DNA of 64,000 bases from Candidatus Algichlamydia australiensis (GTDB lineage Bacteria > Chlamydiota > Chlamydiia > Chlamydiales > JAJFMI01): assembly GCA_033977065.1 (NCBI GenBank), contig JAXCHI010000004.1, positions 416,001 to 480,000 on the forward strand, given 5' to 3'. Of the stretch, positions 37,164 through 39,293 are shown piece after piece. The translations under genes were made by a program, and so were the position numbers. The notes under the pieces are model-generated. The model ran no database searches and was not told the origin of the DNA. It saw only the letters and a program-made list of their open reading frames with translations. Each line of letters begins with the position of its first letter. The first letter of the stretch is position 1.

Positions 37164-37209
37164 ATATTCTTGCTCTCTATGTATTTCTTACTAGAGAGGG
37201 GAGGGCTAA

Positions 37210-37325
37210 ATAGCGTCGTCAAAAGCATACAACCATCTTATTTTTCATGTTTGGGCTTCATTTGAGCACAAAAATAAGCTGCAAACATGAAAAATAATCT
37301 GATTATAGCCTTTTGACGACACTAT
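37210..37325 (-). mobile_element. Family C MITE, 116 bp (C1)
   Basis: TIR ATAGyGTCGTCAAAAG, internal 16-bp inverted repeat TTATTTTTCATGTTTG; flanks CTAA and CTAG. Confidence 0.9.
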
Positions 37326-37329
37326 CTAG

Positions 37330-37490
37330 TACTCTGTAACAGAAAATTTTAGCATTATTTTTACGTCAAAGCCTCGGGATTGAACTATCGAAAATCACCT
37401 CGTATTTGATTAATACTAGGTGACTTGCGATAGCCCAATCGCGAGAGCTTTCACGTTAAAAAGAATAGCAAAAATTTTTGTTACAGAGTA
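37330..37490 (+). mobile_element. Family B MITE, 161 bp (B1)
   Basis: TACTCTGTAACA ends, CTAG flanks; near-identical to 63624-63784. Confidence 0.95.
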
Positions 37491-37494
37491 CTAG

Positions 37495-37895
37495 TACTCT
37501 GTAACAGAAAATTTTAGCATTATTTTTACGTCAAAGCCTTCGCATAAAAATGGATCCCAAACGTAAAAACAGGGTGATCAAAAGGATTTAACGACACTGT
37601 TTAGAACATGCAAAGTTTTCTGCAAAACAAAAAAAACAGCCGCGCAAGCGACGTGAAAGGGGCCCTACCCAAAACGAAGTGGAGGGTGGGGAATGAACGC
37701 GCGATGCGCTCGATGGCTTCAGATTGGCTTTGAAAAATTGCGGTGCAGGAGGAAGAAGTAGTGCTTTGCACGGTTTTCCGACGAAACGCAATTTGGCATG
37801 CCAAGATGAAGCTCAAAGGGCAGCGGGGATTTGCCCGACTGTCTCTATTGGCTGTTTTTTTTAAATTAAACACTAAGATTTTCTGTTACGAAGTA
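37495..37895 (+). mobile_element. Family A MITE, 401 bp (A2)
   Basis: Colinear with A1, CTAG flanks. Confidence 0.95.
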
Positions 37896-37899
37896 CTAG

Positions 37900-38060
37900 T
37901 ACTCTGTAACAGAAAATTTTGCTATTCTTTTTAACGTGAAAGCTCTCGCGATTGGGCTATCGCAAGTCACCTAGTATTAATCAAATACGAGGTGATTTTC
38001 GATAGTTCAATCCCGAGGCTTTGACGTAAAAATAATGCTAAAATTTTCTGTTACAGAGTA
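37900..38060 (-). mobile_element. Family B MITE, 161 bp, inverted (B2)
   Basis: Reverse complement of B1 with ~2 mismatches; CTAG flanks. Confidence 0.95.
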
Positions 38061-39293
38061 CTAGAAAGATGCAGATGAGTTCTGAAATTGGTCGCGAACT
38101 CCATCAAAATATGGATGCTCTAGTGCTTGTTTTAGACCAATGCGATCCTCTTCTGAATAAGCGGTTAGCTTCTCAAAAAGATCTTGTGCATTTTTGTCTT
38201 TAATCGGTGTGAATTCAGGGGTTTGGCTAGGACCGATTTTTTTGTTACACATTTCACTGCTTAATAATAACAGATCAAAGTCATCTGAGGCTGGATATGA
38301 GAAATAACCCGTTAATAAACTATAGAGAATCTGCCCAATGGAAAAAATATCTCTTTTTGAGCTGTATTCGGAATTAGTATTAAAGATTAATTTAGGCGGC
38401 ATATAAAGCTTTGTACCAACAAAAGATCTTCTTTTTTTATTTTTTTCTATTTTACCTGAGGCTCCAAAATCAATAATTTTGATATCTCCATTTGGTAAAA
38501 GCAGAACATTATCCAACTTCAAATCGCAATGCATCACTCCCTTTTCATGCATAGCAATAGTGGCTAAAATGATCTGATAAACAATTTTAGGTACAGACTC
38601 TTTTGAGATGAGTCCTTCTGCTAGTGAATTCATTAAATCTTTAGTTTCTGAATGGTATTCGGAAAGGGCGCCTAATAACTCGAAAGTATTCTTTCCAAGC
38701 AAAGAGGGATCTTCATAAAATTTTTCAATTTTCTCTGCATCAATAACACAAACGTTACCATTTTGATCTCTTGCGATGGCAATATACGCTTTATTTACAT
38801 AATTGCCATATTGCAATAGCGAATTCCACTCCCTCTCAATTCGCTTTTTACTCAGTTTATAAGAGCTTGTATTTCGCTCACTTACTAAGTCTTTATAGGC
38901 GTAATACTTAACGCCATTTTCTGTATTGTAACTACATTTTAAGACATTAGATTCACCACCATCACCTAACTTTTCGTATGTCTGAAAGCGAGAAAAGAAC
39001 TCTTTTAGATTGCGATGAGTATAGATGGAAAACGGAGGTCTAGAGGAGTAGCGAATTCCTAAAAATTCATTAAACTGAAAAAGACTGTTACTAAGTCGAT
39101 TTACTCTTGCCTGCGGGCCTTTTTTACAAAGTTTTTCTGCGTTTATTCTAATTTGTAGTGCTTCTTTTGGCGATTCTCTTAAAAAATCAAGTACGCTTCG
39201 ATCGCTAAATATATCTTGAAGCGTTTCTGTCTCTAAGATTTTTCCATCGTGAATTGCAGCTAATTGAATAAATGGATTTACTTGATTTATCAT
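38061..39293 (-). CDS. Eukaryotic-type Ser/Thr protein kinase
   Basis: LGDGGESNV, YAYK, HCDLKLDN, DFG, GTKLY, DIFSIG, ALEHPYF. Confidence 0.9.
   Translation of the reverse strand: MINQVNPFIQLAAIHDGKILETETLQDIFSDRSVLDFLRESPKEALQIRINAEKLCKKGPQARVNRLSNSLFQFNEFLGIRYSSRPPFSIYTHRNLKEFFSRFQTYEKLGDGGESNVLKCSYNTENGVKYYAYKDLVSERNTSSYKLSKKRIEREWNSLLQYGNYVNKAYIAIARDQNGNVCVIDAEKIEKFYEDPSLLGKNTFELLGALSEYHSETKDLMNSLAEGLISKESVPKIVYQIILATIAMHEKGVMHCDLKLDNVLLLPNGDIKIIDFGASGKIEKNKKRRSFVGTKLYMPPKLIFNTNSEYSSKRDIFSIGQILYSLLTGYFSYPASDDFDLLLLSSEMCNKKIGPSQTPEFTPIKDKNAQDLFEKLTAYSEEDRIGLKQALEHPYFDGVRDQFQNSSASF

Follow-up and report, generated by a model that had tools for sequence, protein, structure and literature searches.

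A mixed array of non-autonomous hairpin elements joined by single CTAG sites in a chlamydial genome, probably extended by target regeneration

Introduction

What gives rise to an array of hairpin elements that abut one another on nothing but single CTAG sites? The question is raised by positions 37206-38064 of the window, the whole 64,000-nucleotide stretch of Candidatus Algichlamydia australiensis DNA analysed here. An earlier note, made from the letters alone, had singled out this locus as the best candidate for an undescribed system, in which a transposase encoded elsewhere adds new elements at existing element ends. Self-extension of this kind is already in print for eukaryotic elements. 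According to the relevant passages of McGurk and Barbash 2018 (PMC5932611), tandem dimers of eukaryotic transposable elements form by double insertion, a site preference acting together with a target duplication that keeps the target and adds another. Plant MITE multimers have likewise been attributed to independent insertions, with MITEs landing in MITEs above expectation (Jiang and Wessler 2001, as reported in PMC5172404). Those passages of the species paper that matched our search terms mention '11 transposases' and hold nothing on elements such as the present ones, and the titles listed in a search of the chlamydial MITE literature offered nothing on them.

Results

Anatomy of the array

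Read directly from the letters, the array at 37206-38064 is CTAA-C(116)-CTAG-B(161)-CTAG-A(401)-CTAG-B inverted(161)-CTAG, with no further spacer; the unit order, unit lengths and lone CTAG joints described in the earlier note were exact to the base. The left edge (37206-37208), which reads GGGC-TA-[element], is the left remnant of a single ancestral target, namely its C and the first copy of the duplicated TA. C(116), an IS5-type hairpin MITE, follows on the plus strand at 37209-37326 (core 37210-37325); its terminal bases are A at 37209, where other copies have G, and C at 37326. The TA at 37327-37328, the centre of the CTAG at 37326-37329, is common to C and to the first B copy, a 161-nt hairpin MITE with IS630-type ends that belongs to the youngest B lineage (37329-37491, core 37330-37490, plus strand). 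Through the TA at 37492-37493, B is joined to A, a 401-nt MITE of subfamily A1 with the same ends as B (37494-37896, core 37495-37895, plus strand), and through the TA at 37897-37898, A is joined to the second B copy, which is inverted (37899-38061, core 37900-38060, minus strand) and 98.8% identical to the first when reverse-oriented. The array closes with the final copy of TA and the G of the ancestral target (38062-38064), the final CTAG being 38061-38064. The ancestral empty site would have read ...GGGCTAGAAAG....

C and B are hairpins, and the array as a whole has inverted arms of 207 nt (37322-37528 and 37862-38068) that are 95% complementary. The core of A is GC-rich and strongly folding, closed by an A-run and a T-run (RNA fold z = -8.1). 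No known RNA family fits this region, since an Rfam scan of 36500-38800 returned only sub-threshold microRNA-precursor hairpins, the best of which reached 43.9 bits where the gathering score is 86. On the right, the array touches a minus-strand protein-kinase gene (38064-39293), the TAG stop of which is supplied by 38061-38063 (CTA). As this stop is made of the terminal C of the element plus TA, it has been rebuilt by the insertion.

Two transposase systems account for the four units

The four units had earlier been assigned to three families. The count of units stands, and that of families does not: positions 1-45 of A and of B are identical and the two have one terminal repeat, so the array contains two transposase systems, not three.

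The A/B terminal repeat ends read GTACTCTGTAACAG. When we searched the window for the two end motifs that the earlier note had named, 13 matches were obtained for one (0.05 expected) and 5 for the other (0.03 expected). In the whole genome, 77 A/B-type ends were found at up to 2 mismatches, and 63 of them are flanked by CTAG; among these 63, 23 adjoin another A/B end (12 distinct junctions), 5 adjoin a C end and 35 adjoin other DNA. When the ends were paired, the 161-nt form proved to have 14 copies and the 401-403-nt form 10, with fragments in addition, and all units of the array are multi-copy in the genome. The A copies fall into subfamilies A1 and A2, which differ at 26 to 39 of about 401 positions. 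The window itself carries a solo A2 copy with CTAG on both sides (25626-26026, plus strand) and a second array (63624-64000, plus strand) made up of a B at 63624-63784, a CTAG and an inverted A2 that extends past the window end to G000:C4:480189. Further arrays of the genome lie at G000:C2:110122-110854, C4:389701-390433 and C3:149289-150049. A and B contain short, unsupported ORFs only, and they have the small size, non-coding character and many copies of MITEs.

A search of public genomes placed the 16-mer at the A/B end in 93 stretches, spread over several phyla. At one locus in an unrelated phylum (L019), it bounds an element of about 1221 bp that encodes an IS630-family transposase (Pfam DDE_3, E 1.1e-24; NCBIfam IS630 transposase NF033545, 144.7 bits, cut-off 100). 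Judged by their terminal repeat, A and B are IS630-family MITEs. A corresponding enzyme was sought in the assembly: the DDE_3 profile gave no match, tblastn of the L019 ORFs gave only matches with E > 0.2, and the best score of the NF033545 profile was 14.4 bits. The idea that the A/B transposase is encoded elsewhere agrees with this outcome; as the assembly is 93% complete, the absence of an IS630 transposase from it falls short of proof. We postulate, as the source of A and B mobility, an IS630-family enzyme from outside the assembly. Another genome, G015, yielded 10 DDE_3 matches, and a rough comparison of their ends, mostly noise at a mismatch setting that was too loose, gave no match to the B-like repeat of G015.

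For C, 88 ends of the type ATAGYGTCGTCAAAAG were counted genome-wide, flanked by CTAG in 43 cases, TTAG in 42 and other sequences in 3. The common form of C is 159 nt, and C(116) is its deletion form. A C-type end closes an IS5-family element at G000:C2:415014-415818 that has DUF4096 and DDE_Tnp_1 ORFs: positions G000:C2:415799-415814 read ATAGTGTCGTCAAGAA, which is the C end with 2 mismatches, flanked by CTAG, and NCBIfam IS5 family model 3 (NF033580) gives the DDE_Tnp_1 ORF 126.4 bits, above its cut-off of 110. On the evidence of its terminal repeat, C is an IS5-family MITE. This resident IS5-family copy shows one recognisable end only and hence may be stranded. Two-ORF IS5 elements with a 2-bp duplication form what we take to be the IS427 group of ISfinder, which would be the subgroup name for the relative of C. 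A 1276-bp element with C ends (G000:C3:388801-390076) was considered as the parent of C and rejected. It is a C159 copy with an inserted IS of the IS5 family (NF033579-type), and its C halves have 9 bases in common, which are the duplication. The window has an interrupted C159 copy of its own (52098-52436, plus strand), which holds another MITE with ends CTCTGTACTGGACAAAAATTTT and a 9-bp duplication, CGTCAAAAG.

Duplication of TA and regeneration of the target

In the earlier note, the palindromic target was held to hide whether TA or CTAG is duplicated. For C, this did not prove to be so. C has YTAG at its left flank and CTAR at its right, with no direct 4-bp repeat, and where a C159 copy is nested in A2 at a TTAG, TTTTAGTATT has become TTTTA[G..C]TAGTATT, that is, one TA became two. 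C duplicates TA only, within YTAR. For A and B, the flanks in this genome (CTAG at 63/77 ends) are compatible with duplication of either TA or CTAG. None of the A or B copies yielded an empty site; at the array itself, the neighbouring kinase shares just 35% identity with its best match in G001, the sister genome, which makes the orthologous empty site unreadable. The choice of TA over CTAG for A and B thus rests on homology and on the flanks elsewhere. In other phyla, the base before TAG at the A/B end is c, g, a or t and the G is constant, which assigns the G to the element. Duplication of TA is demonstrated for the IS630 family, and for ISY100 cut-and-paste movement is shown as well, in the relevant passages of PMC2170065; the titles of Tenzen 1990 and 1991 in its reference list speak of IS630 transposition to TA within CTAG. 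Homology and the flanks in other phyla together indicate that A and B probably also duplicate TA only.

The proposal that every insertion leaves the target restored on both sides of the element was borne out. With G and C as the terminal bases of the element and TA duplicated, the inserted site would read C-TA-[G...C]-TA-G, which places a full CTAG on each side, so that one target becomes two. We consider it probable that the array is a pile-up of four non-autonomous MITEs, A and B of IS630 type and C of IS5 type, that was extended by this target regeneration. The starting point would have been one CTAG in the spacer of a convergent gene pair. Movement of A and B would have depended on an IS630-family transposase, and that of C on an IS5-family one; both would have cut TA inside a short palindrome (CTAG for A and B, YTAR for C) and duplicated TA only. 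As usable CTAGs are scarce, later insertions would often have hit the flanks of resident elements, adding one unit per event and leaving a single CTAG at each joint. We infer both the order of insertions in the array and the source of the A/B transposase.

Abutting copies exceed the expectation from CTAG usage

The genome contains 3192 CTAGs, with 2681 inside crude gene calls (ORFs of at least 100 aa), 388 in free non-coding DNA and 43 at stop codons. About 430 lie outside genes and repeats, and element flanks thus make up about one quarter of the usable targets. Simulation of 45 insertions, an estimated number, into 430 free sites gave a mean of 3.9 A/B-A/B junctions, compared with the 12 observed (P of 12 or more, 0.0002). 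Adjacency is therefore above random CTAG usage even with non-coding CTAGs as the only targets, as the earlier note had anticipated. The 12 junctions are spread over 9 loci that differ in flanks and sequence variants, and each has exactly one CTAG. In the youngest B lineage, of which three copies are identical and the window copy differs by 1 base, 4/4 copies adjoin an A end, two at its left end and two at its right, and the A partners differ at 3 to 31 positions, come from both subfamilies and lie in both orientations. Several insertions are independent, and at least three independent events are needed for the youngest B lineage.

Target regeneration as such matches the 12 junctions only if about 100 to 150 non-coding CTAGs are tolerated. 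Divergent gene pairs are not strongly avoided by A/B loci: 18 of their spacers are tandem (18.8 expected), 12 convergent (8.7 expected) and 6 divergent (8.5 expected). The excess of junctions could come from a true end preference, from host tolerance or from some composite movement.

The last of these, in its full form, would derive every array from one composite unit, or from a few, transposed as a whole by the outermost ends, so that adjacency would reflect few events. Units made from an array can indeed move together, as two loci that differ in their flanks (G000:C2:261990-262467 and C3:601943-602419) both carry a fused B/A chimera of 477-478 nt, with an identical fusion joint and only 2 differing positions in the A part. 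We rejected two independent B/A fusions, suggested by the inversion of the B part between these loci, because alignment revealed a common joint, with the hairpin interior flipped. One copied pair may also account for those at C4:389701 and C4:479624, where the B copies are identical, the A2 copies share their relative orientation and the A copies differ at 3 positions. However, subtraction of two possible copies leaves 10 junctions, still in excess of the simulation (P of 10 or more, 0.0025). Copying cannot yield B on either side of A, yet B adjoins the left end at two loci and the right end at two others. In addition, the A partners are more diverged than the adjoining B copies, the window array carries A1 while the other B-A-B arrays carry A2, and further junctions have other make-ups (A-A, mini-element and stub junctions). 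The partners of different subfamilies and orientations thus speak against the single copied composite that the earlier note had named as an outcome that would undo its proposal, and we regard copying as a very unlikely origin of the arrays.

Still less credible is that the array reflects an assembly artefact or a truly undescribed transposition system. No contig of four public runs bridges the array, as short-read contigs break at repeats; apparent joints in these contigs were dismissed as alternative forms, since their sides are under 31 letters and lie in repeats. The species paper, in the passages that matched, gives only 10x long-read coverage with short-read polishing, and the cognate A/B transposase is absent from the assembly. 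Against this, the single-CTAG joint is repeated at all 12 A/B-A/B junctions in varied contexts, a contig from the run of another study contains the B|A joint letter for letter, and both end types match known IS families.

A possible preference for element ends

Target regeneration may be accompanied by active homing, in which the TA beside a resident terminal repeat is a preferred target beyond its being part of a CTAG and arrays self-nucleate. Such homing could be caused by an end-bound transposase that recruits the incoming complex, or by the deformable base of a long hairpin or cruciform. We consider it rather unlikely, although several counts are in its favour. Besides the junction excess under the non-coding null and the consistent placement of the youngest B copies beside A ends, end sites can be compared with sites inside elements, an internal control that removes host-level selection. 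By this comparison, C insertions were found at 4 of about 90 A/B-end sites and at 1 of the 185 YTAR sites that A/B elements contain (Fisher p = 0.04), and A/B insertions at 12 of about 133 end sites and at none of 35 CTAGs inside elements (p = 0.07). Among 36 full C copies, 4 of the 72 ends adjoin an A/B end, where a pool of 3976 free non-coding YTAR sites predicts 0.76 (Poisson p = 0.008). An effect in both transposase families fits a structural cue. There is a precedent in RUP, the IS630-type MITE of about 107 bp in Streptococcus pneumoniae, which is said, in the relevant passages of PMC2229807, to land in IS-containing regions.

On the other hand, these tests are post hoc, rest on few events and depend on an assumed pool of tolerated sites. 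The A/B-C adjacency, counted from the A/B side, fits the null (5 junctions against a mean of 3.5; P of 5 or more, 0.27). In genome G096, a related high-copy hairpin MITE whose ends are IS630-like and whose target is plain TA shows no abutting pairs among 55 ends, where a lone pattern match with 3 mismatches is not two ends; homing is hence not a general property of such elements. A G125 family whose ends are flanked by CTAG has 0/23 ends abutting, a count made uninformative by the fragmented assembly.

The hairpin core of B in the chlamydial order

Of 151 genomes sampled from the chlamydial order, 49 carry the bulged hairpin of about 90 nt that B has in its interior. Its terminal repeats are of many kinds, being TA-flanked and IS630-like in most genomes and flanked by 3-bp TTA or TAA in others. 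Such retention of the core while the ends change would be the reverse of the usual rule, by which the ends of MITEs are conserved and their interiors drift. Conservation of the module across the order, with its ends swapped, suggests a use to the elements or to their hosts. We put forward, tentatively, a joint reading, in which the TA at the foot of a resident hairpin is structurally favoured by two unrelated transposase families, the arrays serving as safe landing pads, and the B core is a selected module that swaps its ends and its transposase superfamily.

Discussion

We return to the pile-up of MITEs by target regeneration as the preferred account. The array is a tidy case of a known principle and not a new system: the claim of an undescribed system gives way to end types that both match known IS families, and to target behaviour that is as known for them. 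The A/B terminal repeat is identical over at least 16 nt to that of the element with an IS630 transposase, and TA lies at the joint, as in the IS630 family (IS630, ISY100); the CTAG flanks of A and B agree with the preference of IS630 as worded in the Tenzen titles (via PMC2170065). Unlike IS630 and RUP, A and B have no cognate transposase in the assembly, abut end to end on one TA rather than lying inside IS genes, and, in the case of B, have as their interior a long bulged hairpin that is conserved across a bacterial order. C has the same end as the two-ORF type of the IS5 family (DUF4096 plus DDE_Tnp_1), with TA duplicated within YTAR.

The likeness to the dimers treated in those passages of PMC5932611 is that the target is preserved and a new one created, so that insertion at the locus can be repeated. 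The dimers described there are of Drosophila elements with longer duplications, whereas here TA only is duplicated, with the terminal G and C of the element completing a 4-bp target, and the arrays mix two transposase families. The plant multimers, as reported in PMC5172404, are of the eukaryotic Tourist and Stowaway families, in contrast to the IS630 and IS5 MITEs of this genome.

These results provide a bacterial case, at base resolution, of a rare palindromic target and target-completing ends leading to growing mixed arrays. The arrays in turn spawn new elements, namely mobile fused chimeras and mini-elements of two ends only. For those who annotate chlamydial genomes, they are a source of long non-coding spacers and of stop codons rebuilt by elements. 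The by-product of the analysis, the B hairpin, may outweigh the array itself, as a module conserved across an order of obligate intracellular bacteria, whose possible usefulness can now be tested.

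Structure of the window array and its copies in the genome

Direct reading of the sequence gave the array at 37206-38064 exactly in the order proposed in the earlier note (bare positions refer to the window). CTAA (37206-37209), the left border, precedes the hairpin elements C (116 nt; 37210-37325) and B (161 nt; 37330-37490), the element A (401 nt; 37495-37895) and a second B in reverse orientation (161 nt; 37900-38060), each followed by CTAG. A repeat finder returned inverted arms of 207 nt (37322-37528 and 37862-38068; 95% complementary) and internal palindromes in C and B. 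The two end motifs singled out in the same note were strongly enriched in the window: one matched 13 times where 0.05 matches were expected, the other 5 times where 0.03 were expected. Decayed B and A fragments lie at 35047-35114 (~2 kb left of the array) and 39328-39427 (~1.3 kb right), and another A copy, likewise decayed, is situated close to the left end of the window (2854-3076).

The array occupies the spacer between convergent ORFs, 35867..37159 on the plus strand and 38061..39293 on the minus strand. The product of the latter is a protein kinase of the Ser/Thr type (Pkinase, E 3.4e-41). Its gene ends in a TAG that is supplied, on the opposite strand, by CTA within the final CTAG (38061-38064): the inverted B contributes its terminal C, and the duplicated TA completes the codon. 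Insertion into a CTAG at a stop codon keeps the stop intact, and 43 free genomic CTAGs lie at gene ends according to crude gene calls. At 37479-37506 (minus strand), the palindrome of two ends and a T-run just inside the element constitute a predicted intrinsic-terminator-like site; each end-to-end joint would form such a predicted site on both strands.

Copies in the 1.80-Mb genome (G000; 7 contigs), of which the window spans G000:C4:416001-480000, were counted by BLAST with the four array units and by pairing of end motifs. C is represented by 31 copies of 159 nt (C159, of which the 116-nt unit is a deletion form) and by one copy each of 160, 116, 339 and 1276 nt; identity among full copies is 97.5-100%. 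B has 14 copies of 161 nt and A has 10 copies of 401-403 nt, besides which there are two A/B chimeras (477 and 478 nt), mini-elements made of two ends only (32 and 44 nt) and ~35 unpaired ends or stubs. Positions 1-45 of A and B are identical and their ends are the same, which places them in one mobilisation group. The window copy of A and two truncated copies form subfamily A1, from whose window copy the A2 subfamily differs at 26 to 39 of ~401 positions.

Stubs of the A/B end (17-21 nt) and mini-elements are joined to full elements via one CTAG (G000:C2:165970-165985, C3:502034-502049, C3:675447 onward, C4:23982-24013 and C2:261942-261985); deletion after insertion and aberrant transposition are both possible origins. 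Other mobile elements were also met. A C159 copy at window 52098-52436 is broken by a ~180-nt MITE of another family, with ends CTCTGTACTGGACAAAAATTTT and a 9-bp duplication, CGTCAAAAG. An IS5-family IS with a split reading frame (DDE_Tnp_1_5 and DDE_Tnp_1; NF033579) is present at G000:C3:388801-390076 and G000:C2:397645-398754, one of the two copies being inserted in a C159 element whose halves overlap by 9 bases.

Identity of the element ends and transposases

A search of prokaryotic genomes, one for each species, placed the 16-mer of the A/B end, TAGTACTCTGTAACAG, in 93 stretches. Multiple copies are present in unrelated lineages, including MAGs assigned to Phycisphaerales, Treponema and Desulfobulbus as well as Oscillospiraceae; the retrieved loci L015-L094 add Ardenticatenaceae and Acidobacteriota to the multi-copy lineages. 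For the most part these copies are short elements that are non-coding. This distribution suggests that a single IS630 clade, whose end is unusually well conserved, is widespread. At locus L019, from Phycisphaerales, the 16-mer borders a ~1221-bp element with the opposite end ...CCGTTACGGAGTACTAG. The ORF of this element was assigned to Pfam DDE_3 (E 1.1e-24) and scored 144.7 bits with the IS630-family transposase model of NCBIfam (cut-off 100), which identifies A and B as MITEs belonging to an IS630-family clade. No IS630-family gene was found in the G000 assembly.

At G000:C2:415799-415814, a CTAG-flanked match to the C end (2 mismatches) terminates an element that has ORFs for DUF4096 and DDE_Tnp_1. 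The DDE_Tnp_1 ORF reached 126.4 bits with model 3 of the IS5 family in NCBIfam (cut-off 110), so C is a MITE of the IS5 family. Only one end of this element (G000:C2:414990-415818) can be recognised; the element is possibly a stranded copy and may still provide transposase to the very uniform C159 family. The proposal of an undescribed transposition system fails, because the behaviour is that of ordinary IS630-type and IS5-type MITEs.

Target duplication on insertion

The palindromic target had been said to leave TA and CTAG duplication indistinguishable. For C, the flanks and a nested copy settle the matter as TA. Read outward, the C flanks are YTAG on both sides (43 CTAG and 42 TTAG, of 88 ends); on one strand this is YTAG...CTAR, without a 4-bp direct repeat, which fits the reading Y-TA-[G...C]-TA-R. 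The C159 copy at G000:C2:95704-95862, nested in an A2 copy, gives a direct view of the duplication: intact A2 reads TTTTAGTATT, and the same site with C159 inserted reads TTTTA[G..C]TAGTATT.

The A/B flanks in G000 are CTAG at 63 of 77 ends, compatible with either duplication, and no readable empty site for an A/B insertion was found. In other phyla, the G of the A/B-type end is constant while the base preceding TAG is c, g, a or t, which argues that the G belongs to the element. TA duplication is the rule in the IS630 family, as shown by ISY100 (PMC2170065), and titles cited in that paper name TA in CTAG as the target of IS630 elements.

Independent insertions and assembly support

Copying of one composite unit does not account for the arrays. 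Across the B-A-B arrays, of which there are three (in the window and at G000:C2:110122-110854 and C4:389701-390433), and the B-A pairs, both the A subfamily and the A end in contact with B vary. Four B copies, three identical and the window copy B1 one base off, all adjoin an A copy; their A partners show 3 to 31 differences and present the left end twice and the right end twice, which indicates at least three independent insertions of B beside A. Composites do move, without one composite explaining the arrays. A chimera of A 51-401 fused to B is found between different flanks at G000:C2:261990-262467 and G000:C3:601943-602419, with the same fusion joint and only 2 differences in the A part, so it moved as a unit. 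The B hairpin interior (about positions 22-112) is inverted in one chimera copy relative to the other, as if by exchange between the hairpin arms, and B orientation is therefore an unsafe marker of separate insertions.

The genome of the species is described as a long-read assembly with 10x coverage and short-read polishing (PMC11317633). No short-read contig from public runs bridges the array, the contigs stopping at repeats; they connect C (up to 37239) to the left flank and B (from 38036) to the right flank. A 195-letter contig from another study's run is identical to 37345-37539 and covers the B|A joint. Exact single-CTAG joints recur at 9 loci with differing flanks and variants, which argues against an assembly artefact.

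Adjacency of elements against chance

The adjacency of copies was compared with CTAG frequency, as had been proposed. By crude gene calls (ORFs of at least 100 aa; 1468 genes, 88% coding), 2681 of the 3192 CTAGs of G000 are in genes, 388 are free and non-coding, 43 overlap a stop codon and 122 touch repeats. There are 12 distinct A/B-A/B junctions, against a mean of 3.9 in simulations of 45 successive insertions into 430 free sites and 40 extra CTAGs flanking C elements (P = 0.0002 for 12 or more; P = 0.0025 for 10 or more). The 12 junctions would be unremarkable only if the tolerated pool were 100-150 CTAG sites. Viewed from the C side, an A/B end adjoins 4 of 72 ends (36 full C copies), where the 3976 YTAR sites that are free and non-coding would predict 0.76 (P = 0.008).

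Such excesses could reflect a moderate preference of insertions for element ends, a reading that we hold to be rather unlikely. As a control for host tolerance, we compared end sites with equally harmless sites in element interiors: C insertions occupied 4 of ~90 end sites and, in element interiors, 1 of 185 (Fisher p = 0.04); for A/B the figures were 12 of ~133 and 0 of 35 (p = 0.07). The adjacency tests are post hoc and based on small counts. The five A/B-C junctions seen from the A/B side are consistent with the null (P = 0.27), and A/B loci show no strong bias by spacer (18 tandem, 12 convergent and 6 divergent against 18.8, 8.7 and 8.5 expected). G096, of another family in the order, has a related hairpin MITE with IS630-like ends, TA|TACTGAAGTGAGCTC, and a plain TA target; none of its 55 ends (28 forward, 27 reverse) forms an abutting pair, so strong end homing is no general trait of these elements. 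The arrays of G000 go with the rare CTAG target. None of 23 ends abuts in a G125 family with CTAG-flanked ends, in a fragmented assembly. In the sister genome G001, the GC-rich A core occurs as a head-to-head inverted dimer under another repeat, CTAG|TGTCTAGTCYAMAAAGTTC... (L128, L129, L131 and L132), and a B-like element is nested within an A-like core in L002 and L132.

Conserved hairpin core of B

The interior of B (~90 nt; 37363-37455 and 37935-38027) is a bulged hairpin with a conserved base, GAAAGCTCYCGCG ... CCCGRGGCTTT, and a covarying middle stem, in which 22 of 39 pairs show two-sided changes (20 sequences, 5 genera). Covariation in a palindrome can come from template switching between the arms and is not by itself proof of function. 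With a covariance model, the hairpin was detected in 40 of 111 genera (49 of the 151 genomes sampled across the order), with at least 28 copies in many genomes. The outer repeats vary by genome (loci L108-L127 and L138-L157): most are of TA|TAC... types, one type in G015 has TTA or TAA on both sides in 8 of its 10 fetched copies (a 3-bp flank replacing TA), and further types in G084 and G085 start with GG or AGG. Whereas the ends of a usual MITE are conserved more than its interior, the reverse holds for the B hairpin.

Formation of the array

Elements with G...C ends that duplicate TA would convert C-TA-G into C-TA-[G...C]-TA-G, each insertion turning one CTAG into two, each half element and half flank. 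The recreation of the target on both sides of an insertion, as claimed in the earlier note, follows from these ends and a TA duplication, which is shown for C and probable for A and B. Four such insertions into one ancestral ...GGGCTAGAAAG... site would account for all 855 bp of the array, with the stop codon of the kinase gene presumably rebuilt at every insertion. The same logic, in which a target kept and multiplied by its own duplication receives further insertions, is in print for tandem dimers of Drosophila elements (PMC5932611), and MITE multimers from independent insertions are described in plants (PMC5172404). In mechanism, the array reflects how MITEs of the IS630 and IS5 types ordinarily behave when the target is a rare palindrome and their own ends restore it.
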